Below, piece by piece: positions 2,280 to 64,000 of a stretch of 64,000 nucleotides of DNA. The notes below the pieces were generated by a model. The model was not told the DNA's origin, did not search any database, and saw only the letters and a program-made list of their open reading frames with translations. The stretch is from the NCBI RefSeq assembly GCF_036588685.1, contig NC_086376.1, positions 83,393,014 to 83,457,013 on the forward strand, written 5' to 3'. Every line of letters starts with the position of its first letter. Position 1 is the stretch's first letter. The translations under genes were made by a program, and so were the position numbers. This stretch comes from Mytilus trossulus. Its lineage: Eukaryota.

Positions 2280-2791
2280 GTAAGTTCAATTTTAAGTTGT
2301 AAAATAGTTGCATTGTTAAAAAAAATATTAAATTATTTGTAGCACCATACAAATAGAAATAAAAGTCAAATTCAATTTAAAGCTTTCCACCTTATTATAA
2401 TGGATTGATTACAATTTGTTTTAGACAATATACAGAAAAGAAGAACATTTTAAGGAGGGGATTATTTTCCTTATTTTTAAGATTGAAATAAAACTGTGAT
2501 ATTGAAATGCAGCAAACATAAACCACTCTAAAATAAATAAATATAACTGTTTTACTCTGCAATTAAACATTATAAATGTTGGGATAATGCTCTCAGACAA
2601 ACATCAAATTTAATTCCAAAATTAGAACAAGTTTCAAGGAGCATTCCAAACCATGGAAATCACTGAAAAACTTTCAATCATAAAAACTCATATCAGAGAG
2701 AGATAAAATTATTTGTAACCTTGATTGTAATTGAATTTTTGGACAGTAAATATTTTAAAAAATTGACCATAATAATTTTGGAATATTCCAG

Positions 2792-2961
2792 TCAACCTGA
2801 AGAATTTGGTGTAGAAGGATATCAGCCACCTGTAGAAGAGATCAATGCTCATGCCCCACCCCCTTCATTGGTACCAAGATTACATGCTGTTTTGTGTAAC
2901 AAGCTGACACACAATAACCCACTACTGCCACAGAAACCTGACTCAGATGAATATAAAACTA
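2792..2961 (+). CDS. MCMBP: MCMBP exon ...HAPPPSLVPRLHAVLCNKLTHNNPLLPQKPDSDEYKT
   Basis: Matches human [27 protein letters not shown]. Donor gtaagt at 2962. Confidence 0.9.
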
Positions 2962-3740
2962 GTAAGTGGAGACTTGTGGATAGTAGTTCAAACCTAATAA
3001 AAGAAAGAAACATTCATTGCAAAGAAAATAAAATCTTTCATGCAAATCTGTTGGTGTTGATCAAAGTATTAAAAGTCATAGAAGTTGAACTTACCCATCA
3101 ATTTAACACTACAACGTATAGCTATATAATTATTGGAAAATCCTCTGGATTTCATTCTATTGGAAGTTTAAATTTCTCCTTGAAAAACACTTTAGGAATG
3201 ACTGTATTTTTTCTGTCTATGAAGAAATAACATAAAAATGTGGTGCACACTGAATAACGTGTGTAGCAGGTTATTTAACAGTGTGCACCACATTTTTTAT
3301 ATTATTTCAAATAGACAGAAAAAATATTACAGTCATTTCTTATAATTTAATTCTAAATTCCATTTTAAACCGTAGAAAACCATGAAAAAACGTTGATGAC
3401 GTCATTGTTACATGACTAAATTATGTCTATGGGCTGATAACAAAATAACGTCAGCCAATCAGAAGATGCGTTACATCCAAAATTAAATTGTATCTTAAGT
3501 GAAAACCTGTGAATTTTACTAAAGAAAACTGCATGTGTGAAGAAAACTGAAGACATTTGCTGAAATTATTATTTGTACTTTATACTATACTTTTCCAACA
3601 TAAAAGTGAAAGTTCGTTGAAAGTTGTAACATTTCTTTCTAACCTATTTAAAGATTATATCATAAATCTCCACTTTGCTCTAATTTGATATATGCTAGTA
3701 CTCTTTATGTCAGTGTATGAACCAATGCATTATCTTTCAG

Positions 3741-7873: not shown

Positions 7874-8422
7874 GTAAGTAATAGATTATAATAAGCTAGT
7901 TGTTCATTGTGCTCTAAGATCAGTTGTTGTCACTTTGCATCATTCACTATTTATGCCAAGGCTGAAATAGGTTCTCATTGACTTTTCTTTTTACACCTAT
8001 GATAAAGTCCTATGTCCATGGGAGTTTCTAGTTTGAAAATTTGTCCAATGACCCTGCCTGCCAACCAAGATGGCCAACATGGCTAAAAATTTAAAGTAGG
8101 GGTGAATTGCAAGTTTTGTCTATCATTTTGAAAATATTATAAAGAGAGGAAATCTGACTGGAGCAAAACTGAACAGAATGTTGAGCTTAATAATAAATAC
8201 TGTAAATTCAGAAATTATTGCAATGTTTTTATTATTGCTAAAAATGTGATAGGGTTATCATTGCAATAATTAAAACTCTGATACAGATAAATATTTAAAA
8301 ACAAAAATAATCAGCAAAATAAGATATACAACATTGCTGAAGCCATCAATTTCTTTTCAATTTTAATTGCCCTTTAATGATAACTTTAATCAAAATGATA
8401 TATTATAACATATATATTTCAG

Positions 8423-8525
8423 ACTGCTATCACTCAGCTACTTAAAATCAACACCTACACAAACTCTGTGGAGAAGGGCCAAAAACATGGACTCAGAAAG
8501 GAAGAGGAGGATCAGCCCAACCTAA
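8423..8525 (+). CDS. MCMBP: MCMBP terminal exon (R)LLSLSYLKSTPTQTLWRRAKNMDSERKRRISPT*, stop TAA 8523-8525
   Basis: Matches human [30 protein letters not shown]. An AATAAA lies about 65 nt downstream. Confidence 0.85.
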
Positions 8526-8587
8526 ACATACTTGATTGACCAACACAGAAGAAAGACTTAAAATATTAAAAAAAGAATAGAATTCAC

Positions 8588-8593
8588 AATAAA
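8588..8593 (+). promoter_or_regulatory. AATAAA polyadenylation signal downstream of the MCMBP stop
   Basis: Hexamer 63 nt after the stop codon. Confidence 0.5.
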
Positions 8594-10804
8594 CAAATTT
8601 ATACGCAAAGAACACATTTTGCCATTGTTAACTGAGGAGAAATTTACATTTGTTAACCATAGAAAGAAAATAAATTGTTAGCTCATTTTAAATGATTTTT
8701 GTTTTGCCTACAAAATAAGTTGACAGACATGACAAACTGATGCAAACAAGGCTATTTGAATAAAACTTTGTGTCAGAAGAAGAAAGAGCTGGATTAATCA
8801 TCTGTTCAACACTACAGTTGTCTAGCTATTATCTGGAAAACTATTGCATTTAGAGAGAAACTAACAATAAAACAGTAAAAATGGCCATCCCACCAAGCAC
8901 TTACTGAATATGTCAAAAAAATCTGCTCCAGACTATTTCAAGACGATTTCAAAATTATTGCCCCTGAAATTTTAATTTTAATTATTGTTTAATGTTTAGC
9001 CTGCTAGCTTTTGTTTCTAAATGATCGACAATACAAAATATTAGATGATTTTTACCAATATACTGTGGTCGTATCAAGCTGCACTTGGCACAGCAATTTA
9101 TTGTTATTGTCTTAAAAAATTTAGACATGTTTATGGTCAATAAAAATTGAAACATTGATCATGTTTGCTAAAAAAGAGGTGAAAGATATCACAGAAACAA
9201 TTAAAAATACACAAAGTTAAAGAAAATGCAACAAAGAGCAAGAAATTACTAACACAAGAGAAACATAATTTGCTTTCAAAACACTACAAAGAAAGCTTCT
9301 AACTAAGCATATCTCACCTCCTAGATACTACCAATATTGCTCTTGGTTAGTAAAAACTTGATGATTAGTCTAATCTTGTTATAGAACAATCAAGAAAACG
9401 AGAACCGGGTTGTGGCTATAATTTTGGTTATCATTTGTGACACAGATATTTCATGACTGTCGTCCTATCCATGATGGTATACATGAAACTTTCTTCAGAA
9501 TTTCTTCAACTCCCCTTGATATCCTTGACTCAACCCTGGTATGCAGCAACCAAATATCAACTACATCATGATATGGAATGAAAGCTCTAAATTATCTTAG
9601 CATCAGCTATTCATACTGATGGTATTTTGCTACCTATAAATTGATTGTTTACAATCAGAAAGCTGAAATTATCTCTTTTTTTATGCCCCATTTATGGGCA
9701 TTATGTTTTCTGGTCAGTGCGTCCATTTGTTCGTCCGTTTGCCCTCCTTACCATCCTCGGGTTAAAGTTTTTAATGAAGTTTAGTCAAATCAACTTGAAA
9801 CTAAGTACACATGTTCCCTATGATATGATCTTTCTAATTTTAATTCCAAATTGCAGATTTTCCCACGTTTTCAAGGTCCACTGAACATAGAAAATGATAG
9901 TGCTGATGGGGCATGCGTGTACTGGGGACACATCAGGGGTAGATCCAGCCATTCTAAGGGGGTTCTAACAATATTCAACCATTCAAATGCATTGATCGTC
10001 AAAAAAAAAGGGGGGGGGGGGTAAAACCCAAACTGGATCCGCCAATGCACATTCTTGTTTCAAAAGGTTTTGTTCTAAACTAACTTTCATTGTCAATTTC
10101 TTTATGTATTAAAATTGAGAATTGAAATGGGGAATGTGTCAAAGAGACAACAACCCGACCATGGAAAAGACAACAGCAGAAGGTCACTAACTTGAAGCCT
10201 TTAGTTTAGAGACACTCTATATAGTGTGACACGAAAGTAAAGGATATTGCTATCATCTCTCAATGTACAGAAACTTCTGGAGGGCTTTTTTGGGGCTAAG
10301 AATAATATAATTATATCGACTGGTCACAGGTTGGGACCCGTTTCTCTATATATCATGAAGTAACTTACTTTAAGTAAGGTCAACTTTATCTCATGAAAAA
10401 AGCCTTGCAATACGTTTGATCTGAACATAATTATCATTAGAGACTGTACATTAAATTGATAAACCATTTTCAGTTTGTTAGTACATTTTCAGACTTATCC
10501 CCTATGGTATGATTTCAGAGTGGTAACTGACTTTCATTGGTTAAAGTTCAAGCATTAGCGCAAATTCAGTGCTATTTAGACACATCGATTGCAGTCAATC
10601 ATTATATGTTATGTCTGTTTTCAGACTGTTCCAACTCATATTTGTTTTCCGCTTTTTTCCAACAAAACATTAGTCTGACATGTTTTAGAACAAAACTGGA
10701 TTGGTTGACTGCAAGCGAACTATCTTAACTTCTGAAACTGAAATGAAAACAACTTTTGGATTTTAAATTATTTAAGATAATAGTATAGAAACAAAACCAA
10801 CCAC

Positions 10805-11950: not shown

Positions 11951-12005
11951 ATGCTACCTTTGAAGCTGTCTTGGATGCTCTTGTTGCAAGTGGTCATAAC
12001 ACGAG
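11951..12005 (+). CDS. Lectin gene exon 1: signal-peptide-like MLPLKLSWMLLLQVVITR(G), donor gtatgt at 12006
   Basis: An ATG is followed by a hydrophobic core. The phase-1 donor joins in frame to the phase-1 acceptor at 13418. There is no homology support. Confidence 0.45.
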
Positions 12006-13417
12006 GTATGTAAACCTGTATAGACGGGCGGATTGGTTGAGATTATGTTCGCGCAAACAAAAACATAACATTTGCGCGACTTTAACCTATAAATCTACCT
12101 GTATATTTGCCATTCTATTAAATACAACTTACTTTTTAAAAGTCATATTATTATTGTATACTTTACTGGACGAATATCCATTCAATTTGTAGGTGTCATT
12201 TGGACCGTGTTTTTAAATATACATGTATAGAGAACAAATGCAACATTTGCGCGGCGAGAACTATAATTACGTTCGTGCGGATTTCAAAATAGCAATTTAA
12301 AACAGGTATTTACCTTTATTTTAAGCAATAGCTCTAGTTCTAGTCCTTTCATAAACGTACAATCCGTGCAAACGTAAAATTTCCCGCGCAAACGTAACAT
12401 TTTTGTTCACCCAAAACTAACATTTTTGTTCGCGCAAATATATTTACCAATCCGCGCATATGTAATGTATGTGTATCGACGAATTTACTAACTTTACTTA
12501 TTAGAAGGTATGTAATTTTGCAATACGATACACTGAGTATGTATTAGTTGAAAATTGTACAAAGAACTGTAACAGGGTTCGTTTATTAGTTCTCATATTA
12601 TGAAATTGCATACTAAAACGTCTTTTTTAAAAACCAAACCTTAGTCTACGAATACGGCGAACGCGCACATACACATATATTTCTTCAAAACTCAATCACT
12701 GAATCAATTTTACAGTTTCAGTTTACCATTTACCTTGTCACAACTTTATTACCTTTTATTTATGATAAAGTGAAAGATTCGTAAGTGACAGAAAATGAAT
12801 TCCAACTAGCCCTCCCAACAAGTAAAGTAACTGCAAATTGCCAATGATACCAACTCCCTGTATATTTTTTAATTTGCGCTTTCCTAATCGGAAGATCAAT
12901 CTAGAAATGCGCATCAGGCGCACGAAATTGATAAAGTGAAAAAATTATTCAATTATAATTGAGAGTGTTCTTGTTCTTTTATGCTCTGTGTGACGATATG
13001 ATTGCAAACACGTCAAACTTACTTGTTCTTACAAAAATATGACAAAAGGGTGGAATAAATTTACAAATTGTAAAAATAAAGAGAGAGGTTCGAGTGCTTG
13101 TTCCAAGTCTGGACATCTTAAAACTTTGTTAAGTGTTGTTTCGTTAGGTTCCTATCTCATTTACTTGTATCACACATCTCCTTTCATTCATACAAAACTT
13201 GAAAATGGAAATGGGGAATGTGACAAAGAGATAAACCCGACCAAAGAGCAGACATTAACCAAAGGCCACCAATGAGTCTTTAATGCAGCGAGCAACCCCG
13301 CACCCTGAGGCGTGCTTCACCTGGCCTGAAAAAAGTACAAAAGAAAACCCACAAAATATCAAAGAAAGACAAATGTACCGTACGACTGAATTTTCAATTA
13401 TTGATTTTTTTCTGCAG

Positions 13418-13559
13418 GTTTCAGCACATATTTCTATCTAGGACCATCCATTTTGAATTATTATGATTCATTGGATTACTGTACGAACATTGGAATGAAA
13501 CTGGTAAAAATTAACAACGACCAAATGAACAATATGGCAGCGCAATTCATCACGAGTGA
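13418..13559 (+). CDS. CTLD-1 N-terminal half: FSTYFYLGPSILNYYDSLDYCTNIGMKLVKINNDQMNNMAAQFITS(E)
   Basis: C-type lectin fold signature: Y..F...T...A...C...G..L..I....E..F. Acceptor is tttctgcag and donor is gtaagt. Confidence 0.75.
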
Positions 13560-14512
13560 GTAAGTATATAGTCTACAGGAGCTAGCAAAGGGGGAAGAAA
13601 AATCTGTGGTTGCAAAATTTTCAACTTTTCTATTAATTCATTACTTTTAAAATAGTTAACATTTAGCTTAAACTAGATCGTTTTCATCCAGCGATATGTG
13701 TTATTTTCACATGCAACATTATCAAAACTGCTAACACTTTCGTTTTTTAAGAGGTTTCATGATTTGTAATTAATTTTGAAAATACAATGAGCACATTTAT
13801 TGCCGGACATAACTGTCAAATTCGTGTCCCCGATTCGAACCAAATACTCATATTTTATTTATAACATAGTGAAACATCTATCAAGATTTAAAAAAATGTA
13901 GGAAAGTATTTAAGGGGCATTAGCTACGATTTACACCAAAACATAAAACGTGTTATTTTGTGTTTCTAACATTTTCAAAACCGAAATATTGAAATAATAT
14001 TTCGCTAGCTATTAGCTGTCAGGTCGGTTCATTTTTTTCCAAATAAGATTTTATCTAAACAACAGCAAATGACTTGTCTTATTGGCTTGCAAGTATGATT
14101 CAATCTTATTTGAATCCATAGTCATGCAACCTTTAATTTTACCATGAAGCATAAAATATCAGCCAGGTCCATTTCCGCAAAGTCCTTTTATCTTAAAAAA
14201 AAAAAAAAAAAAAATACCAATGAGCACCGTGTTTACTTATATTTTGATATTAGATTAGGTTTTTTTTTCGAAATGTGCAGACAAATTTGGGAATAAATCA
14301 AATACCTTCCCCAATGCCAAGTGTTGCATGGAATACGACGTGACCATAGCTTTATAGGTCTGTCATTCAATATTTATTATTGTAATTGTGTTCATCTTTG
14401 GTAGACATTTGTATTACTAGTATATGTTGTCAAATATATTTGCGTATACAGGATTTTTGAAGGTGGGGATGTTAGTCTCAAAACCGGCTCTATGGATATA
14501 TATTTTTAACAG

Positions 14513-14712
14513 GAGCATAGTCGATGATGTGTGGATGTCTGTATATTGTCCGCCAAACCAACTTTGTCATTGGGATGATGGCAATACGTTGGACTATGAC
14601 TCATGGGCAGCTACTGAACCAAAATTTGAATTTGGAAAATTTAGCCAGACCTATGCTTATGTATTGTGGACGACTGGCGCCTACACGGAACTTAACCGCC
14701 CTCTATGTTATG
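14513..14712 (+). CDS. CTLD-1 C-terminal half: SIVDDVWMSVYCPPNQLCHWDDGNTLDYDSWAATEPKF...NRPLCY
   Basis: Contains W.DG...Y..W...EP and the terminal LC motifs. Acceptor is aacag and donor is gtgtgt. Ends in phase 1. Confidence 0.75.
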
Positions 14713-14956
14713 GTGTGTATCACTTTAATGTATATACATATGTAATAGTAGAGTACATGTTCCAAAATTCCTTTATCTAGATCTTTTTTTCATCTCTCTC
14801 CTTTCTTTCACAATTATGTTTTAGTGATTAGCTTTGTGTAAATTTTTCATTTATATTTGATAGTGGAAACAGTCTTTTAGTACAATGTATGTCATTCTAA
14901 TTTAATTTCATTATATATTGATTAAAACTATTAATCATGATTTTGATTACTCTATT

Positions 14957-15375
14957 TTCTGTCTATTTTCTTTGGGATTATTTAAGCATTTTGATCATGC
15001 TGTCTGTCTATTTTCTTAGAGATTATTTAAGCATTTTAATCATGCTTTCTGTCTATTTTCTTAGAGATTATTTAAGCATTTTGATCATGCTGTCTGTCTA
15101 TTTTCTTAGAGATTATTTAAGCATTTTGATCATGCTTTCTGTCTATTTTCTTAGAGATTATTTAAGCATTTTGATCATGCTGTCTGTCTATTTTCTTAGA
15201 GATTATTTAAGCATTTTGATCATGCTTTCTGTCTATTTTCTTAGAGATTATTTAAGCATTTTGATCATGCTTTCTGTCTATTTTCTTTGGGATTATTTAA
15301 GAATTTTGATCATGCTTTCTGTCTATTTTCTTTGGGATTATTTAAGCATTTTGATCATGCTGTCTATCTATTTTT
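14957..15375. repeat. 45-bp minisatellite, about 9 copies (tctgtctattttcttagagattatttaagcattttgatcatgctg)
   Basis: Tandem periodicity is visible directly. It is intronic in the lectin gene. The 153-aa ORF across it is a periodic artefact. Confidence 0.9.
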
Positions 15376-16097
15376 TCTTCTTTTTGGCTTTAAGTTAAGT
15401 GGGGATAAGAGATGCCTAAAATATCATCAGGTATGTGCAGTTTTATGCTATGACATTTTTAATTTCTCCATTCAAATTGGGTTTGTTGCCTTGGGGAAAA
15501 TATCGTATCAAAGAATTCTAAAATCGCTGATATGTTTGATTCTATTTTCTTTCCATAAAAAAAAATATGCCGTGCAATACTTAAACACCCATGCGTGTTT
15601 TATGCTTCGGATGCTTAAATTGCTATTAATGAGACAACTATCCAACACAATTATATATGTTTTAAGAGATTTATACAATGAGTTTTTGTTATCAATATTT
15701 TAAATAGCTAGGTAATTGATATTCGAACTTTTTAGTTCTATTTTTTTTTTTTTTATCATATATGTACTTTCAATTTGAATAAATTTCTTTTTTTTTACTC
15801 TCATTTTCATTTAGGCATTAGTAATGCCTCGACATAATTTTCATGAAAATCCTAAAATTTAAGAGTAATGCCTAACATTATTAGGCAATTAGGCAATAGA
15901 CTTAATACTGCCTAGTCGTTAAAGTATTACCTTAGCTTTAAACGGAATGCCTTATTTCACTTATTGCCACTAACATATACACTTTATTGCATAGTTTTTA
16001 CAATAATTTTTGTTTTAATGAAGAAAAAAAACATTCACCGTCTTTCTGTATTCTCTTATGTCAAATTTGTTTCTACTTGTATACTGTTATTTTACAG

Positions 16098-16242
16098 CAC
16101 CTCCTCATCCAGACGTGACATTTATCCATGGAGATTATAACTATTATGAAGCCTCGCAAGAATGTATTAACTTAGGTGGACAATTAGCTGTGTTTTCTAA
16201 TCCAGTAGCCGTTACGTATTTAAAAGAGTTCATAACTTATGA
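16098..16242 (+). CDS. CTLD-2 N-terminal half: (A)PPHPDVTFIHGDYNYYEASQECINLGGQLAVFSNPVAVTYLKEFITY(E)
   Basis: CTLD N-terminal signature (C..GG.LA.......L..F). Acceptor is ttttacag and donor is gtatgt. Confidence 0.8.
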
Positions 16243-17092
16243 GTATGTATTTTCAAGTTAAGATCAGTCAACACTACATTTACATGATTTAATATTTCAA
16301 AATTATAAATTCTTGCAACATATTAAGAATATCTTTGCTAAGATCATCCTTAGACAGCTTCAATGCGAGTACTGATATATGTCCTAGGATATTCATAAGA
16401 GGACCATTAGACAAAAGTCACATGTTTTAAGATATATCTTATGACATGTCCTTTATTAGCTTAGTGAAACCGGCCCCTTACTTATAACTTTTGTACTCAA
16501 GACGCGCATTTCGGCGAAAAAAAGAATCATCATACAGTGACACTCGAATAAAAAAGTAAAAGTTCAAATAAAGTGCGAAGAGTTTTGAGGATCAAAGTGT
16601 TTTTGAAAGGTTTAGCAGAATACAACTATAGCCTAAGGTATTCTATTAATGGGATAGGAAATCCATAGACGCTCTTCGGTTGAATTTGCATTTGCATTTT
16701 TATTCTATTTTTGTTTTATTTTTCAGCATTTGATATTAATTAAGGATTGATAGTATCTGAAGTGTTGCATCACTAACGAGAAATACATTTTAAAAAACGC
16801 ATATAAGACACAAAAATTTGCTTTTGTATCATACAATTTTATCTTGCTTCATATTCATATACGAATATGCGCACTCTTCTGTTACTTTCTCGGGAATAAG
16901 GTATATTCAATTTTAGGATATATACTTGAATACTAAAGGATAGTTATGAAACTGTTTTACAATAGTTCATTCAATATTCATTTTATAAAATGTAGTTTAC
17001 AGCAGCCTAAACTTCTCGGCATCACATATTATATGAAACATTGAGATTTTTTCCCCCGAAATAATCATTGTGAAAGTTTTAGTTAAGTCAGA

Positions 17093-17245
17093 GGCGGATT
17101 TAGGGGGGGGCAGGGGGCCCGGCCCCCCCTTTTTGGGAAAACATTTGGTTGCTTATATAGGGAATCACTGAAGCGTGAATGAAGCGGGCCCCCTCTAAGT
17201 TCAGTCAGTGGGCCCCCACTTATGAAAATTCCTGGATCCGCCACT
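17093..17245. mobile_element. MITE with CAGnGGCGGAT terminal inverted repeats and G/C homopolymer-rich ends
   Basis: Starts cagaggcggattt... and ends ...ggatccgccactg. Related copies lie at 34500-34650 and, as a partial, 9935-10055. Confidence 0.5.
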
Positions 17246-17324
17246 GTAAGTATATAGTTTTGGGGATCGCACTAAAACAAGATTAGTCTGTAAGTATTAA
17301 TGAGTTATGTTGTTTTTGTGCTAG

Positions 17325-17536
17325 AACTCTGACTGGTGACATATGGATAGGCCTATATGGTAACGGAGCATATTTAACCTGGCAAAACATGGTCGAAAGT
17401 GTGGTTTATACGGACTGGAAACCAGGCCACAATGTTCCCAATCAGGATGCAAACGTCTCTATAGCGGTGGACATGATCGATGGTACATGGGTGTCAAAAA
17501 CTAAATCTACCAGACTGCCTCACGCATTATGTCAAT
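17325..17536 (+). CDS. CTLD-2 C-terminal half: TLTGDIWIGLYGNGAYLTWQNMVESVVYTDWKPGHNVPNQDANVS...LPHALCQ
   Basis: Contains WIGL and W.......Y.DW.PG.P. Acceptor is ctag and donor is gtaagt. Ends in phase 1. Confidence 0.82.
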
Positions 17537-17616
17537 GTAAGTTGTTACAGGTTTGAGATGAACTTCAGTCATAATGTGTGCTGTTCTAGAATTTTCAGCT
17601 TTTAGGTTAAGGGGCT

Positions 17617-17800
17617 ACCATTTAGGAGATAACTATATTGTATTTTAAGCTCCGACGGCATCAATTGGGGATTTGATGGTCGCAAATTAAGTTTACTGGC
17701 GACGCGTTAGCGGAGACAGTAAACGGGTATTTGCGACCATCAAATCCCAAATTGATGCCATTGGAGCTTAAAATACAATATTAATATCTCCATTCTACTG
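17617..17800. mobile_element. Hairpin MITE (about 184 bp, near-perfect foldback; TIR ggagataactatattgtattttaagctc)
   Basis: The left half is the reverse complement of the right half. A second diverged copy lies 160 bp downstream. Confidence 0.7.
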
Positions 17801-17957
17801 AAACTGACAGAAAACAACGTTAAAACATGTATTTAAAATTTGTCATGTGCCGTCTGCGCTTGTGCGTACGTCCCATAGCATCAATTGTCAATTGATGCCA
17901 TGTAAGAAAGTGACGTTATCCAATCAAAATGAACGTTACAAACGTTGTTGTATTAGA

Positions 17958-18130
17958 ATTAGGAGATAACTGTATTGTATTTTAAGCTTGGCCTTCGTAA
18001 AACGTAGATTTTACTGTCGCAAATTGAGTTTACCTAGCGACGCGGAGCGGAGATAGGTAAACGGATATTTGCGACAGTAAAATCAAGTTTTACGAAGGCC
18101 AAGATTAAAATACAATACAGTTATCTCCAT
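17958..18130. mobile_element. Second copy of the foldback MITE (same terminal inverted repeats, diverged interior)
   Basis: ttaggagataactgtattgtattttaagc ... aaaatacaatacagttatctcc. Confidence 0.7.
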
Positions 18131-18529
18131 TCTAATGCCACATATTAAAATAAATGTCATTTAATAAATATTTTGGCTTAAAAATGGCATAGATGAAAAA
18201 GTCCGCGAAACTGTTGCATTGTCTTTAGCATCTAAACAATGTGACGTCATGTGTTTACTCTGGATGTCAAACATGAATACTAAACATATTTTTACTTTTC
18301 CTACGCTTCAAAATGGTTTCAATATAGACTAAAAGAAGATTTTGAGGCTCAAAATGTGAATATCTTGTTTATTTTTTGAGAAATTACATATCCCAGAATT
18401 CAAAATGGTGGCTTTCTTAGTTACGGACTGGTAGAACGTGGAATCTAACCCCTCAAAATATTTCTCAACGTCCAATGAAAATTATCGTTACAAACTAATT
18501 GCATTAGAATTGATTTTTAGGGGGTGTTA

Positions 18530-19020
18530 TGATAAAAAAAAAAGACAGGATAGCCGGAAATTCTGATAAAAAAAGGTTTTTATGTAGAAAAAAGTCAGGA
18601 TATATTACTTAAAAAAAGGCAAAACCGTACAGAGTGAAAATTAGTAAGATTACTACTAAAAAAAAAGGCAGGACAGAGATAACCACTAAAAAAAGACAGG
18701 ACAGAGATTACCACTAAAAAAAAGACAGGACAGAGATTACCACTAAAAAAAAGACAGGACAGAGATTACCACTAAAAAAGAGACAGGACAGAGATTACCA
18801 CTAAAAAGTAAAATCACAAAAATACTGAACTTAGAGGAAAATCAATTCGGAAAGTCCATAATCACATGGCAAAATCAAATAACAAAACGCACCAAAAACG
18901 AATGGACAAGAACTGACTAAAAAAGACAGGACAGAGATTGCTACTAAAACAGACAGGACAGAGATTACTACTCAAAAAGAAATGACAGAGATACCGCCCC
19001 CCCCCCCCCCCAAAAAAAAA
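18530..19020. repeat. Roughly 31-bp minisatellite (aagacaggacagagattaccactaaaaaaa)n ending in a C13A12 homopolymer run
   Basis: Repeated units are visible. The homopolymers are at 18996-19022. Confidence 0.85.
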
Positions 19021-19319
19021 AAACCACACACAAATAAAAATGGTTGCTCTCTAACACTATAATATATCTTACACTGCTTCGATCTTTGCACTTAAATTAA
19101 TGTTTAGCAAATCCAAATAATTATAACGTTTCAAATTGATCTGTTCAAATACTCTAAAAAGATGTGGGGAAATTCAAAATCATGCATTCGAATCAACAGT
19201 GAAATAGTTGTATCAAATGGATTACGTGGAATGTTTTGTTCTTCTTTATTTCAAATTGAATAAACGTTTTACAAATATAGCATTGTCAATATTAGAAAGT
19301 AAATTTTAGATTCATATAT

Positions 19320-20615
19320 TTTTAGCTCACCTGGCCCAAAGGGCCAAGTGAGCTTTTCTCATCACTTGTCGTCCGTCGTCCGTCGTCCGTCGTCCGTCGT
19401 CGTCGTCGTCGTCGTTAACTTTTACAAAAATCTTCTCCTCTGAAACTACCGGGCCAAACTAAACCAAACTTGGCCACAATCATCATTGGGGTATAAAGTT
19501 TAAAAAATGTGTGGCGTGACCCGGCCAACTAACCAAGACGGCCGCCATTGCTAAAAATAGAACATAGGGGGTAAAATGCAGTTTTGGCTTATAACTCAAA
19601 AACCAAAGCATATAGAGCAAATCTGACATGAAGTAAAATTGTTTATCAGGTCAAGATCTATCTGCCCTGAAATTTTCAGATGAATCGGACAATCCGTTGT
19701 TGGGTTGCTGCCCCTGAATTGGTAATTTTAGGGAAATTTTGCTGTTTTTGGTTATTATCTTGAATATTATTATAGATAGAGATAAACTGTAAACAGCAAT
19801 AATGTTCAACAAAGTAAGATCTACAAATAAGTCAACATGACCAAAATGGTCAATTGACCCGTTTAGGAGTTATTGCCCTTTATAGTCAATTTTTAACCAT
19901 TTTTCGTAAATCTTAGTAATCTTTTACAAAAATCTTCTTCTTTGAAACTACCAGGCCAAATGAAAACAAACTTGGCCACAATCATCATTGGCGTATCTAG
20001 ATTAAAAAATGTGTAGCGTGACCCGTCCAACCAACCAAGATGGCCGCCATGGCTAAAATAGAACATAGGGGTAAAATGCAGTTTTTGACTTATAACTCAA
20101 AAACAAAATCATTTAGAGCAAATCTGACAGGGAGTAAAATTGTTTATCATGTCAAGATGTCAAATTTTCAGATGGATCGGACATTCTGCTGTAAGGTTGC
20201 TGTCCCTGAATTAGTCATTTTCAGGAAATTTTGCCGTTTTTTGTTATTATCTTGAATATTATTATAGATAGAGATAAACTGTAAACAGCAATAATGTACA
20301 GCAAAATAAGACCTAAAAATAAGTCAACATGACCAAAATGGTCAATTGACCCCATAAGGAGTTATTGTCCTTTATAGTCAATTTTTAACAATTTTCATAA
20401 AGTTTGTAAATTTTAACTAACATTTTCGACTGAAACTTTTAGGCCAAGTTCAATAAAGATAGAAATAATTGTAAGCAGCAAGAATGTTCAGTAAAGTAAG
20501 ATTTACAAACACATCACCATCACCAAAACACAATTTTGTCATGAATTCAAATGCGTCCTTTGTTTAATATTCACATAGACCAAGGTGAACGACACAGGCT
20601 CTTTGGAGCCTCTAG
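19320..20615 (+). mobile_element. Composite non-autonomous element: terminal hairpin (agctcacctggcccaaagggccaagtgagct), (GTC/GTCGTCC)n microsatellite at 19368-19416, two ~540-bp internal tandem units and a conserved tail ...ggtgaacgacacaggctctttggagcctctag
   Basis: All parts are visible in sequence. A reverse-complement copy lies at 52700-54015. The structure resembles the satellite-carrying Helitron-like / tandem-repeat MITE elements described in bivalves. Confidence 0.7.
19368..19416. repeat. (GTCGTCC)n/(GTC)n microsatellite inside the composite element
   Basis: gtcgtccgtcgtccgtcgtccgtcgtcgtcgtcgtcgtcg. Confidence 0.9.
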
Positions 20616-20897
20616 TTATATTTATTTTCAATTTTTCAAAAAGTCAAAAAGTTATTAAGCTACATGTCTTTTAGGTGATTTTTTATATACTATTTGAAAA
20701 ATTATTTTCAGAAACGAATAAATCATCTGAAGGTCGTAAAATTTCTTTATTTTAAATTAAATATAGAGGGATATTTGCCGATATTTCATATTTGTTTCTC
20801 GCTAGGTCTATTCTACTCCACTATTTATTACAGCTTTGAATTGTGTATACTTTGTTTCATTGAGTTTCTTACCAAAGTCTCTTATTTCTGAATGTAG

Positions 20898-21036
20898 ATA
20901 ATTATTTGGCGATGAGTTACTCCGTTGATTATCAAACTGCTAAACAGGATTGTGAAATGAATGCTTTGGACCTTGCCATGCTACCCACAAATGAAATGTT
21001 TACAGTTGCAAAGAATGCTATTGTCTACCAGGGAAT
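20898..21036 (+). CDS. CTLD-3 N-terminal half: (Y)NYLAMSYSVDYQTAKQDCEMNALDLAMLPTNEMFTVAKNAIVYQG(M)
   Basis: CTLD N-terminal signature. Acceptor is tgtag and donor is gtaagt. Confidence 0.8.
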
Positions 21037-21859
21037 GTAAGTAATAGAAATACTGAAATCAGAATCTATCTTTTTAGATACACCTAATAATGTAACAGAA
21101 ACTAATCCGTTTTTAAACATGTCCAAACTATTCTATTTAAATTTATTATGTCTCAAATGGAATTAGAATAATTATGTATCTCTCATCTCTACACTCTAAT
21201 TGTTAAGTAAACACTCCTTAGTTACCAAGGCAAAATCCTTTTAAGACACTTGAATTGTACGCATACACTCCCTACAATGAGGCTACATTATGATAAACGA
21301 TACAATATGGGTTCACCCTTGCTGCTTCTTTGCCTCAGTGCAGAAAGAATCACTAATTTTACTGGTCAATATATATCTTGCATTTACTGGGTAACTGAAC
21401 TAACTAAGTTCTCTTGTTATTCTTAAATCCTTGCGTACTTGCTCCAAAGTCAGGAACCTTTAATTCAGCAGTTGTGTCTTGTTGCTGTGTTACATATTTA
21501 TGTTTCGTTCATTATTTTGTACATAAATCAGGCCGGTTTTATTATTTGAGTTGTTTTACATTTGTCATTTTCGGGCCTTTATATCTGACTTTGCGGTATG
21601 GGCTGCAACTTTGCCCATTGTTGAAGGCCGTATGGTGACATAAAGTGGTCATTTGGGCACTTGTGGAGACGGTTGACTCATTGGCACATCTTCTTGTATT
21701 TACTGATGTGATGATAGAACGGAACGGAAATAAATAATTACTCTATTTGAACTTTGAGAGGACTGTTAGATATCAGTAACTCTTGATATAACCATAGATG
21801 TAATACCGATAATCTTTTTAGTGCTTGCCAATGATCTTCGATAATATGCTAAAGCCCCA

Positions 21860-22365
21860 GGGACAAGAAAAACGATTTCTAATTATATTACAGGGACATT
21901 TATAAAAGTTTCTAAATATACTACAACGACAATAATAACATTTTTTAAACCTAGTACAGGAACAAAGTCAATAATAACGATTTCTAAATATATTACACGG
22001 ACAATAATAACGATTTCTAAATATATCGCATGGACAATAATAATAATTTCTAAATATGTTACATGGACAATAATAACGATTTCTAAATATATTTCATGGA
22101 CAATGATAACGATTTCTAAATAAAGTACATGGACAATAATAACAATTTCTAAATATTATGTTACATGGACATTAATAACGATTTATAAATATAGTACATG
22201 GACAATAATAACAATTTCTAAATATTATGTTACATGGACATTAATAACGATTTATAAATATATTACAGGGTCAATAAGAACGATATCTAACTTGATATGC
22301 TACAAGGAGTCGACAATACTAACGATTTCCATATATTTACAGGGACAATAATAACGATTTTTGGA
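21860..22365. repeat. Roughly 33-bp minisatellite (acatggacaataataacgatttctaaatatatt)n, about 15 copies, running directly into the CTLD-3 exon
   Basis: Tandem units are visible. The last unit supplies the acceptor AG and the first codons of the exon beginning at 22343. Confidence 0.9.
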
Positions 22366-22551
22366 TTGGACTGACATCAGCAGATGGAATTTCATTCAAA
22401 TGGAATGATGGAACAGATCTTACGGAAACAGCATGGATTTATGGAGTACCTACGTCATTTGCTATAAACCAACGTGTTAAACTTGTTTACACTAAAAGTT
22501 TTGATTGGGATAATAGAGCAGCGACGGAAACCAGTCTATTTCTTTGTCAAT
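22343..22551 (+). CDS. CTLD-3 C-terminal half: DNNNDFWIGLTSADGISFKWNDGTDLTETAWIYGVPTSF...SLFLCQ
   Basis: Contains WIGL, WNDG and WDN motifs. Acceptor is tttacag and donor is gtatgt. Ends in phase 1. Confidence 0.82.
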
Positions 22552-23185
22552 GTATGTATGTTTTCCTTGATATACCAAAATGAGGGATTCGAGAAAAAAA
22601 ATTAAAGAAAAAATATAGAAAGCTATACTTATTGTCACAAATATGATTTTTTTATGTGTAAATAAAACTTTTGTCGACCTCATCGAGTGTTTCAATTTTG
22701 AAATAAACTTGATTTTTTTTTAAAGCGAGATTATTTTTTTTTTACATATGGATAAAGCTAAATTAACAATGAACTGATATTCCCATTGTTCGAGTGTGGG
22801 TGTATTTTTGTACGAATATGTATGTGATTTTCTCATTAAACAATAAATGTGAAAAACGAAAATGTACACTAGATAAACTTTGTAATATATAAAAAAGATG
22901 ATGTGGTATGATTGCCAATGAGACAACTACCCACAAAAAGACCAAAATGACACAAACATTAACAACTATAGGTCACCGTACGGCCTTCAACAATGAGCAA
23001 AGTCCATAATATGATCATTTTGTGGAGTCAAAATACAGGTGAGTGTAGGGGGTCGTATATTGGGATAAATAAAAAATTGTTTTAACCATTTAGTTAGACT
23101 ATTGTTTCAGTAAAATTAATCCTGTATCATCATATATATCCGATTATACATCACATTTAATAATTCATATAATTATTTACAATAG

Positions 23186-23296
23186 ATCCAACGGCGAACT
23201 ATTATCCAATATCCCAAGATATAGTTGAAGGTTTAACAACAGGAGTAAACACACCGGCGGGAAATATTGGTCAATGGCATGTTGGTGGTACAAACA
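23186..23296 (+). CDS. Linker exon (Y)PTANYYPISQDIVEGLTTGVNTPAGNIGQWHVGGTN(S)
   Basis: Open in frame between the phase-1 donor at 22551 and the phase-1 acceptor at 23799. Acceptor is aatag and donor is gtaagt. Confidence 0.65.
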
Positions 23297-23798
23297 GTAA
23301 GTAAAGTAGCAAACAACGTTAATACTTCATGGAATAAAAAATGAAGAGATGACAAGACTACACCGCATTGAATTTGATAATGGTTTTTTTTTTTGCAACC
23401 TATGCATCTAATTGTGTTAAACTATTAATTTATATGCATATATTCTACTTTAATTTTGATAGATGAGTGAGAATCAATCGATAAATGACGTTTGTTAAGG
23501 GAGCTATTATTTGATTTTTTTTATTGGGTAAAAGGGGGGTGGGGGCTAGGATGAAAATTGTTGTCCTGCCTTTTTTGTTTTTCAATTTATTCGGTCCTGC
23601 CTCTTCTTTAACTCGAAACTCCTCTCCTGTCATTTTTTTTAAATTTCATCCTAGCCCCCTGAAAATCAAGTGGTAGCTCCCTGATAGCACAGTTATATTT
23701 TGTGTATCCTTGACCTGATGTCCAGTGGTTAAATAATGTTCAAAGTAACTGTTTGCTGCATTTTCCTTCAAAATTGCGTATTTTTTCATCTTTTACAG

Positions 23799-24022
23799 GT
23801 TCAAGGTATTTTCATATTGACAAGACAGATGCCATCCCAACGTCTCTTCCTTATTTAACCGAGTATTCCAAAACAAAGATTTACTGTGCCTACTTATGTC
23901 TACGTCATGGAACCGATTGTACAGCATTTGTCTTTAAAACTGAACAGTGCCTAGTTTTCAATGGATACAGCTCCATCAACACCACACCAGATATTGGAAG
24001 TGTTATCTGGGTGTGGGTGTAA
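23799..24022 (+). CDS. Terminal exon: PAN/apple-like domain ...KIYCAYLCLRHGTDCTAFVFKTEQCLVFNGYSS...VWV*
   Basis: The cysteine spacing C-x3-C-x6-C-x9-C with the AF.F....C.L motif is typical of PAN/apple modules. Stop at 24020-24022. An AATAAA lies near 24160. Confidence 0.7.
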
Positions 24023-24187
24023 GAAAATTCGTCGCAGTACGACATCATGAATTGAGACAAACTGCTGATTTTAGATTTTTTATTAGTCTTAGAAAGTGAA
24101 ACTTACAAAGTATTTTTAATAGAAAGAAATACAGTTACTTCTGACATATGAATTATGAATAAAAAAAAATAATGTTATCCTTTTCAA

Positions 24188-33424: not shown

Positions 33425-33880
33425 CTAAACTGTATCTAGAATTAATTTTCTCTCTTTGAATAAAGTACACAATAATAAACTTACTTTTTTAATTATAACA
33501 TTATCCTCAGATGACATTAACCATATTAATTTTGATTTATTTGGGAGGCTTTTAAAGTTTTTGTTAACCTTATTTAAGTAATCTATATATTCAGATCTTT
33601 TATTTTCTAAAACAGGACACTGAAGAAGAAAATGAATTTCATCTTCAACTTCAGTGTTACATAATTTACATATTCTATCCTCCACTCGAAGCCCCACATA
33701 TCTGCCTCTTTCAATTTCTAATTTATGTGCACTGACTCTAAACTTAGTGAGCAGTCGCCTTTCATCCTCATTTAAAATTAATAAGTATTTTTCCATATAA
33801 ATATTTTCTTTAAATAATCTGTAAGTTCTTAGTTTATTTCCATGCTGTTTATTTTTTTGCAACAGAGACGTAAATGGCAC
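33425..33880 (-). pseudogene. Non-LTR retrotransposon (LINE) ORF2 C-terminal fragment with HxxxC...C...H zinc-knuckle-like tail (RVSAHKLEIERGRY...CKLCNTEVEDEIHFLLQCP)
   Basis: The motif is typical of reverse-transcriptase C-termini in jockey/CR1-type LINEs. It is truncated and has no upstream RT domain. Confidence 0.55.
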
Positions 33881-63202: not shown

Positions 63203-64000
63203 CTATGGCCTTGTAAAATATTTCCTCTGTTTTCTCCTCCTTCCTTTTTTTGTTTTCCTTGTAAAGTATTCATGTATCAATCCCTCTCCAATATTCTGCT
63301 TTGGTTCCCATGTCGGTTTGGAACCATCTTTCCATTTCACAAGAAAATACTGTATTCCTCTTGTTTTCCTTGTATTTAGTAGTGTCTCAACCTCATGAAA
63401 CGTATCATCAATAACATTGTTCGGTTCATCTCCATTATCACTGTCGGTTTCTGAATCTGTACTCTCATTGTCTGCAATTTGATCATCTTGATCATTATCT
63501 GCAGGTTGGTTATTTTGCGCATCGGGTGGATTATCTGGAACTGGACGTTCTGGAGCTTGTGGCGGGTCACGGAAATCAGTGGGATCTACATATTGCCTAA
63601 GATTGCTCGCATTGACCATAGCTTTAACTTCCTTCTGGTCACTGCAGCGTCTTAATTTATATGTGAAATTCGGCCCACAGTCAGTTATGTAATAAGGACA
63701 ATTAAATTTATCAACTAATTTTGGTGAACGACCGACAGGGACTACATGTTCTTTAAGTAAAACTTTATCTCTAAGCCTAAATTCAGGAATTTTGGTATTT
63801 TTGTCGTATTGTTCTTTCATTTTTGCTTGTTTAAGCTTAATATTTTCAGCAGCAAAATCTTGGGTAATTTTGAGGTTTGAAATTATTTCTTCTAAATGGT
63901 GTTTTGCATCTTTTGACAGATTGTCTTTTGGCAAAACAGATGCGTCAAAAGGTAAGTTCATCTCCTTGCCGAACACCATTGAGAAGGGAGAATACTCTGT
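63203..64000 (-). mobile_element. Ty3/Gypsy chromovirus-type pol 3' end: integrase C-terminus plus chromodomain (..FHEVETLLNTRKTRGIQYFLVKWKDGSKPTWEPKQNI..), running off the window end
   Basis: A 258-aa ORF. Chromodomain signature Y.VE.IL..R...G...YLVKWKG....TWEP.N. The polypurine-rich K/R tail overlaps a polypurine-tract-like run at 63225-63260. Confidence 0.7.

Follow-up and report, generated by a model that had tools for sequence, protein, structure and literature searches.

What might a mussel protein bind when none of its three C-type lectin-like domains (CTLDs) has the inner disulfide bond between the second and third canonical cysteines (C2 and C3) or an intact classical calcium site, and when a PAN domain follows them at the C terminus? 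This question is raised by the gene LOC134714244 of Mytilus trossulus, at positions 11951 to 24022 of a 64,000-nucleotide stretch of contig NC_086376.1 (assembly GCF_036588685.1, forward-strand positions 83,393,014 to 83,457,013; this whole stretch is "the window," and coordinates below count from its first nucleotide). Our preferred answer, to which we give a probability of roughly 0.6, is that the gene encodes a secreted, soluble, noncanonical multivalent binding protein devoid of the Ca2+ site. Such a protein would bind its ligand without the classical Ca2+-dependent sugar site, making multivalent contact through the surfaces of three CTLDs with an unstapled long-loop region and through the PAN module. 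Its role would be that of a humoral binding or agglutinating factor or a matrix-adhesion factor, and it would be neither a classical C-type lectin nor a membrane receptor.

The region holds the complete gene, which is already annotated as a RefSeq model. Nine plus-strand exons, spliced by script, give a 1437-nt open reading frame (ORF) of 478 amino acids in which every intron is GT-AG and the stop codon is TAA (24020-24022). The conceptual protein is identical, letter for letter, to RefSeq XP_063431556.1 ("uncharacterized protein LOC134714244 [Mytilus trossulus]"). The parts of the gene are as follows, with the supporting evidence in parentheses; L002 is a transcript contig described below.

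11951..12005, + strand: exon 1, start codon and predicted signal peptide (MLPLKLSWMLLLQVVITR plus the first base of G19), end phase 1 (splice sites, hydropathy)
13418..13559, + strand: exon 2, N-terminal half of CTLD1 with first cysteine C1 = C40, end phase 2 (splicing, Pfam, alignment)
14513..14712, + strand: exon 3, C-terminal half of CTLD1 with VWMSV, C78/C84, EPK, F106, Y123, and last cysteine C4 = C131, end phase 1 (splicing, alignment)
16098..16242, + strand: exon 4, N-terminal half of CTLD2 with C1 = C155, end phase 2 (splicing, Pfam; contig L002 block 16096-16242)
17325..17536, + strand: exon 5, C-terminal half of CTLD2 with IWIGL, VPN, V225, K241, and C4 = C250, end phase 1 (alignment; L002 block 17327-17540)
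20898..21036, + strand: exon 6, N-terminal half of CTLD3 with C1 = C270, end phase 2 (splicing, Pfam; L002 block 20898-21046)
22343..22551, + strand: exon 7, C-terminal half of CTLD3 with FWIGL, KWNDG, VPT, R342, WDN, A358, and C4 = C366, end phase 1 (L002 block 22343-22549)
23186..23296, + strand: exon 8, linker of 38 residues (PTANYYPISQDIVEGLTTGVNTPAGNIGQWHVGGTN), phase 1-1 (splicing; L002 block 23186-23296)
23799..24022, + strand: exon 9, PAN/apple domain (C434, C438, C445, C455), then stop (profile, fold; L002 block 23800-24127)
24023..24127, + strand: 3' untranslated region (UTR), at least its first 105 nt (L002 alignment continuous from 23800 to 24127)

The intron phases, in order, are 1, 2, 1, 2, 1, 2, 1, and 1, with phase 1 at the borders E1/E2, E3/E4, E5/E6, E7/E8, and E8/E9. 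The internal phase-2 intron of each CTLD falls in an identical column of the three-domain alignment, 6 to 8 residues upstream of the WIGL motif. Shared phase 1-1 borders and a common internal intron column are what tandem duplication of a two-exon CTLD unit predicts, and the origin of the three CTLDs by tandem duplication of such a phase 1-1 unit is thus supported. The Mytilus edulis orthologue found by protein search (477 amino acids) is 90% identical across 100% of the query, and its locus has the same nine exons with a single 3-nt indel, in exon 3; the nine-exon structure recurs in independent RefSeq models of three species. An earlier note, made from the letters of this DNA, had proposed that nine exons assemble into one protein whose CTLDs are each split over two exons, flanked by phase-1 boundaries, and derived by module duplication. 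All of this was borne out, by the GT-AG splicing, the RefSeq identity, the M. edulis exon match, the phases, and the shared intron column.

Transcripts tell the same story for part of the gene. Intron-less Logan contigs (SRR13891816 and SRR13891787; L002 and L003 here) represent an orthologue of Mytilus californianus type and contain six blocks matching exons 4 to 9. Five of the gene's eight junctions, along with 105 nt of the 3' UTR, are thereby covered by contigs from a sister species. The transcript check that the earlier note had called for therefore came out in two ways: exons 4 to 9 are joined in these sister-species contigs, but exons 1 to 3 are replaced there by intron-like sequence. 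Upstream of exon 4, positions 1-139 of L002 and 1-169 of L003 are occupied by such sequence, which ends in ..CAACATAG and contains in-frame stops, and the M. californianus RefSeq model consists of CTLD3 and PAN only. In M. californianus, CTLD1 may have been lost, or transcription may start at an internal promoter.

All three CTLDs are recognized by the Pfam hidden Markov model Lectin_C (PF00059; gathering cut-off, 22.6 bits), as had been expected. Scored alone, they reach 25.8 bits (CTLD1), 32.1 bits (CTLD2), and 30.5 bits (CTLD3), and the whole protein scores 75 bits over three stretches. The domains have normal lengths (114 to 119 amino acids), with CTLD3 spanning positions 3 to 106 of the 107 in the model, and their long-loop regions align without deletion. 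Columns were assigned by aligning the CTLDs of the family with tetranectin and a canonical Patella CTLD. Each CTLD aligns with tetranectin end to end, with no gap at the C2 or C3 column, and the outer C1/C4 pair is kept in all three (C40/C131, C155/C250, and C270/C366). At the positions of the inner pair and of the two Ca2+-site motifs, the alignment reads as follows.

CTLD1: F106 in the C2 column, Y123 in the C3 column, EPK at the EPN position, WTT at the WND position
CTLD2: V225 in the C2 column, K241 in the C3 column, VPN at the EPN position, WVS at the WND position
CTLD3: R342 in the C2 column, A358 in the C3 column, VPT at the EPN position, WDN at the WND position

The alignment thus agrees with the claim that the C2-C3 pair and the EPN/QPD and WND triads are gone from every CTLD, with the qualification that vestiges of EPN remain. 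The inner pair is also absent from the orthologues of M. edulis, Mytilus galloprovincialis, and the M. californianus type. Other parts of the earlier description apply to some domains only. CTLD2 and CTLD3 do keep just the outer cysteine pair, but CTLD1 has four cysteines, including an extra, noncanonical pair (C78/C84 in YCPPNQLCHW) that is conserved in every family member. Likewise, the WIGL motif said to mark all CTLDs is present in CTLD2 (IWIGL at 187) and CTLD3 (FWIGL at 304) but degenerate in CTLD1 (VWMSV at 72), and the W.DG motif is found in CTLD3 (KWNDG) but not in CTLD2 (TWQNM). The protein has 12 cysteines in total, an even number with no orphan, and these would pair as 40-131, 78-84, 155-250, 270-366, 434-455, and 438-445.

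Four conserved cysteines forming two bridges are a structural hallmark of CTLDs (PMC6716108, PMC7618208, PMC12842671), and even choanoflagellate CTLDs retain the four cysteines (PMC4381721). Our literature searches for CTLDs lacking the second disulfide returned no clear precedent and no census. One trivial explanation would be a faulty gene model, with C2 and C3, or further domains, residing on missed exons. We consider this extremely improbable: the long introns (up to 3.4 kb) speak for it in principle only, whereas the CTLDs are near full Pfam length and gap-free at the C2 and C3 columns against tetranectin, L002 runs from exon 4 to exon 9 without additional sequence, and the RefSeq models of three species agree. 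A tblastn search of the window found no further CTLD-like segment, extra CTLD exon, or paralogue. On the strength of the full-length, gap-free CTLDs, L002, the RefSeq models, and the tblastn result, we rejected the missed-exon reading.

The history of the missing disulfides can be read from the family to which the protein belongs. At the available sensitivity, this family comprises nine clusters, all from Mytilus (M. edulis, M. galloprovincialis, M. trossulus, Mytilus coruscus, and M. californianus), and a full-family profile search recovered nine Mytilus proteins and none from other genera, in line with the suggestion of a lineage-specific protein. Its Mytilus paralogues (XP_076089252.1 and VDI72755.1 of M. 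galloprovincialis and XP_071148670.1 and XP_071148757.1 of M. edulis) are 34 to 38% identical and have the same layout, with a signal peptide, three CTLDs, a linker, and a four-cysteine PAN domain; they share the extra cysteine pair of CTLD1 and the lack of C2-C3 in CTLD2. Unlike the protein studied here, however, the paralogues (P0002-P0005, P0007, P0062) have cysteines in both the C2 and the C3 column of CTLD1 and CTLD3, and their CTLD3 still has EPN; their linker is longer, Thr/Pro-rich, and repetitive, in contrast to the 38-residue linker of exon 8.

Because the paralogues and canonical CTLDs carry C2 and C3, their absence from the window gene is a secondary loss and a paired one, with both partners gone each time. 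The C2-C3 pair is missing from CTLD2 of every family member, and the sequence of events thus comprises an older, family-wide loss in CTLD2 and later losses in CTLD1 and CTLD3 of this orthologue group, in which the ligands of Ca2+ site 2 (EPN/WND) have decayed too. At the EPN position of CTLD3, the paralogues have EPN, M. edulis and M. galloprovincialis have EPT, M. trossulus has VPT, and the M. californianus type has APS or SPS. This variation looks like drift at a site that has fallen out of use.

Could the gene then simply be decaying? A normally conserved disulfide that has been lost three times independently, with the Ca2+ motifs gone as well, would be compatible with a copy heading toward a pseudogene, as would the M. 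californianus-type transcript that seems to be without CTLD1 and the many dispensable immune-type genes in Mytilus genomes (cited in PMC10140915). However, M. trossulus, M. edulis, and M. galloprovincialis each have an intact ORF, of 477 to 478 amino acids. Compared with the M. edulis coding sequence by the Nei-Gojobori method, the ratio of nonsynonymous to synonymous substitution rates (dN/dS) is 0.225 overall, with dS at 0.23, and by domain it is 0.24 for CTLD1, 0.15 for CTLD2, 0.24 for CTLD3, and 0.16 for PAN. Purifying selection acts on the gene, which is not a pseudogene. Decay is therefore very unlikely, and we rejected it in view of the intact ORFs, the purifying selection (dN/dS, 0.22), the pairwise loss of cysteines, which leaves none unpaired, and the spliced transcripts of the sister species. 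Purifying selection and spliced expression in a sister species together indicate a working protein.

MCMBP lies upstream of the gene in both M. trossulus and M. edulis, in the same order and orientation, and this shared neighbor supports the orthology of the two loci. Between the window and the M. edulis locus, exons are 87 to 97% identical and introns about 76 to 88% identical; this divergence, like the dS of 0.23, is high for sister species.

The predicted location of the protein is outside the cell. The N terminus contains a hydrophobic core (residues 6 to 17; mean Kyte-Doolittle hydropathy, 2.0), and outside the signal peptide, the highest hydropathy over 19 residues is 1.0, with no segment of transmembrane grade. 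Because there is a signal-peptide-like core and nothing else comes near transmembrane hydropathy, the protein is probably secreted and soluble. The earlier picture of a single secreted-type protein with a signal peptide, three CTLDs, and a PAN domain is supported in this respect, but its description as a receptor fails, since there is no transmembrane segment past the signal peptide.

The lack of a membrane anchor also bears on the names given to this family by automated annotation. These names (LY75-like, CD206, MRC1-like, MRC2-like, and PLA2R-like; XP_071148670.1, for example, is called "secretory phospholipase A2 receptor-like") would place the protein in the macrophage mannose receptor family (MRC1/LY75/PLA2R), and CTLD1 and CTLD3 do find their best PDB matches among the CTLDs of MRC1 and LY75 (E = 1e-6 to 2e-9). 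Membership has next to no chance of being correct: Pfam finds only Lectin_C, there is no ricin-type or FNII domain and, judging by hydropathy, no transmembrane segment or cytoplasmic tail, there are 3 CTLDs instead of 8 to 10, and the PAN domain is foreign to that family. The domain content refutes membership, and the automated names are misnomers that reflect the best matches of single CTLDs. The likeness to the mannose receptor family (MRC1, LY75/DEC-205, and PLA2R1) lies in tandem CTLDs that for the most part bind no sugar; its members differ in architecture and are membrane proteins. CTLDs of the mannose receptor family are described as keeping the canonical cysteines.

The C-terminal domain was the least certain part of the earlier description, which called it PAN/apple-like. 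Its best Pfam match is PAN_2, at 13.7 bits (E = 0.07) and so below the cut-off of 21.1 bits, and the Pfam check of this claim was thus negative, but family-profile and fold evidence were in its favor. A profile built from eight family C termini matched only PAN proteins in PDB, led by the HGF N domain (E = 0.011) and followed by Eimeria MIC5 and Sarcocystis SML-2. Searched against 1.84 billion representative proteins, the same profile retrieved 39 (E down to 1e-47 and 1e-14). Among the 10 top retrieved proteins, which were scanned, 9 are from outside the family and all of these carry Pfam PAN_1/PAN_4, mostly as multiple repeats; the tenth is a family member. When the family profile was aligned with Pfam-verified PAN repeats by hhalign, the probability was 97.6% (E = 3e-12), and in a 47-sequence PAN alignment, no columns are invariant except those of C434, C438, C445, and C455. 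A homologous-protein search seeded by the PAN alignment returned nothing. AlphaFold2 modeling of window exon 9 with the 47-row alignment gave a predicted local distance difference test score (pLDDT) of 78.2 (core, 84 to 91) and a predicted template modeling score of 0.70, and the top Foldseek match of this model was HGF NK1 (probability, 0.99). Because profile and structural evidence agree, we accept the PAN fold despite the subthreshold Pfam score. The domain holds four cysteines and lacks the third disulfide, which joins the N and C termini in the six-cysteine apple. We therefore class the C-terminal tail as a divergent four-cysteine PAN domain of the HGF-N-like type, not a six-cysteine apple. 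Elsewhere, PAN modules bind proteins or heparin (e.g., HGF and FXI) or galactosides (apicomplexan lectins).

What such an assembly binds is the harder part of the question. The ligands of Ca2+ site 2 have been lost in all three CTLDs, which makes classical Ca2+-dependent sugar binding unlikely. The main rival of the binding-protein reading is that the protein is still a carbohydrate-recognizing humoral pattern-recognition lectin, acting through variant motifs (EPK, VPN, and VPT/WDN) or secondary sites, with the disulfide loss being of little consequence. Several observations would fit this view. In bivalve lectins with multiple carbohydrate recognition domains (CRDs), CRD1 of CfLec-3 (YPT/FQN) and CRD4 of ScCTL-1 (MPT/YIN) are reported to bind pathogen-associated molecular patterns and to agglutinate microbes (PMC12842671), and the CTLD of SpBark, which has no EPN, QPD, or WND, nevertheless binds lipopolysaccharide and microbes (PMC6716108). 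EPN is kept in CTLD3 of the paralogues, so that the ancestral role of the family was probably glycan binding, and galactose binding is known for the PAN domains of two apicomplexan proteins, MIC4 and SML-2, both structural neighbors by Foldseek. On the other hand, the Ca2+-coordinating Glu and/or Asn of site 2 is replaced in three of three domains, and the drift of the motif between close species suggests that the site is unconstrained. We therefore regard the lectin rival as possible but rather unlikely.

A noncanonical binding protein has precedents in part, as Ca2+-independent bivalve C-type lectins such as ScCTL-2 and the SPLs are known (PMC12842671) and the motif-less SpBark CTLD shows that microbes or lipopolysaccharide can be bound in the absence of EPN, QPD, and WND (PMC6716108). 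The reading nevertheless has several points to contend with. Functional multi-CRD lectins of bivalves often have variant motifs (YPT, MPT, VPD, and others; PMC12842671), and the loss of EPN/WND by itself is therefore no proof that sugar binding has been lost. The presumed ordinary CTLD fold of the single-disulfide domains is taken from the Pfam match, and an AlphaFold2 model of the full-length M. edulis orthologue, made with a 7-sequence alignment only, had a pLDDT of 33.6. The signal peptide was called from hydropathy and visual inspection, the junctions from E1 to E4 come from RefSeq models in three species, and literature searches for the family protein accessions and the Sequence Read Archive runs returned nothing relevant. 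Binding without Ca2+ and the suggested biological role are inferences, purely so in the case of the pattern-recognition or adhesion role proposed earlier. A bolder version, in which the paired removal of the inner disulfide and the loss of the Ca2+ site represent adaptive remodeling that freed the long loop as a flexible, Ca2+-independent surface, seems doubtful to us. If true, it would amount to a new recognition mode, with a single-disulfide CTLD that keeps its long loop intact, joined to PAN in a Mytilus-specific humoral factor.

Set beside known systems, the protein is ordinary in kind, being one more lineage-specific bivalve CTLD protein, but two features stand out: all three CTLDs have secondarily lost both partners of the inner disulfide while the gene stayed under purifying selection, and a PAN domain forms the C terminus. 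The most similar kind of protein described so far is found in scallops, whose secreted lectins have three CRDs (CfLec-3) or four (AiCTL-9, Cnlec-1, and CfLec-4) and which are likewise humoral proteins of tandem, diverged CTLDs (PMC12842671). Several CRDs of these lectins are degenerate (YPT/FQN and EPD/FSD), and EPN tends to survive in the last ones (PMC12842671); the lectins differ in that no PAN has been described in them and in being reported as Ca2+-dependent, mannose-inhibitable agglutinins. Among PAN/apple modules (HGF N, plasminogen PAp, the apples of factor XI/prekallikrein, MIC4, MIC5, and SML-2), the one here stands apart by its two predicted disulfides and its position C-terminal to a CTLD array. 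The closest non-Mytilus PAN domains, of the same subtype, are those of Patella caerulea KAK6173957.1 and of Haliotis proteins. The Patella protein also joins PAN and CTLD, but there PAN comes first and the single CTLD is canonical (EPN, C2, and C3). Compact CTLDs (Link modules and intimin/invasin), as Zelensky and Gready are said to have described in 2005, lack the C2-C3 bridge, and their whole long-loop region is deleted; these domains and ours are alike in having no inner disulfide, but here the long-loop region is kept.

The surveys of bivalve C-type lectins consulted here list WSC, sushi, SRCR, apextrin, and Ig domains as partners of CTLDs and never mention PAN, and our literature searches for PAN_1 with Lectin_C and for PAN in bivalves found nothing relevant. 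The remark that a CTLD series joined to PAN is not a textbook lectin architecture holds in the sense that the combination is not among the bivalve lectin architectures described in the literature searched.

The introns of the gene and the remainder of the window contain repeats and neighboring features, as follows.

21861..22360, + strand: intron-6 minisatellite, 33/66-bp unit, about 13 copies (TRF)
14956-15374: intron-3 minisatellite, 45 bp, 9.3 copies, 95% identity
17622-20395: repeat-rich stretch of intron 5
17625-17791: intron-5 hairpin element with 63-nt arms, 90% complementary; related copy at 17959-18033
18647-18992: intron-5 minisatellites of 29/27 bp
19368-19415: intron-5 (GTC)n/7-mer run
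19409-19903 and 19911-20395: intron-5 tandem duplication of about 500 bp, 86 to 90% identical
2721-3230 and about 8281-8820, + strand: exons of MCMBP, the upstream neighbor (Pfam MCM_bind)
33425-33880, - strand: retroelement remnant with a weak zf-RVT match
63203-63979, - strand: retroelement remnant, a 258-amino-acid ORF with a terminal chromodomain (the tail of a Ty3/gypsy-type integrase)

The intron-6 minisatellite runs into exon 7, with its last unit contributing the acceptor site and the initial 18 nt of that exon (..TTTACAG/GGACAATAATAACGATTT). Units upstream contain near-copies of the acceptor (ACAT/GG), and a few of these units have true AG sites. M. edulis has the array too, and the orthologues vary exactly at the residues encoded by the minisatellite end (DNNND, DVNND, NVNND, and DVLNND). 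The intron-3 minisatellite yields a spurious, repetitive ORF of 153 amino acids (14937-15398), and the repeats of intron 5 are probably transposon debris.

Bivalves have hundreds of CTLD genes, most of which are known only as automated models with misleading vertebrate names, and within this repertoire the locus documents a CTLD-PAN architecture that the bivalve lectin surveys consulted do not mention. It also offers a natural experiment, in which sister paralogues with and without the C2-C3 disulfide and EPN have domains that are otherwise alignable and in which the disulfide-less copies have been retained by selection across several Mytilus species. This contrast bears on whether a full-length CTLD needs its inner disulfide and on what a domain without it binds.

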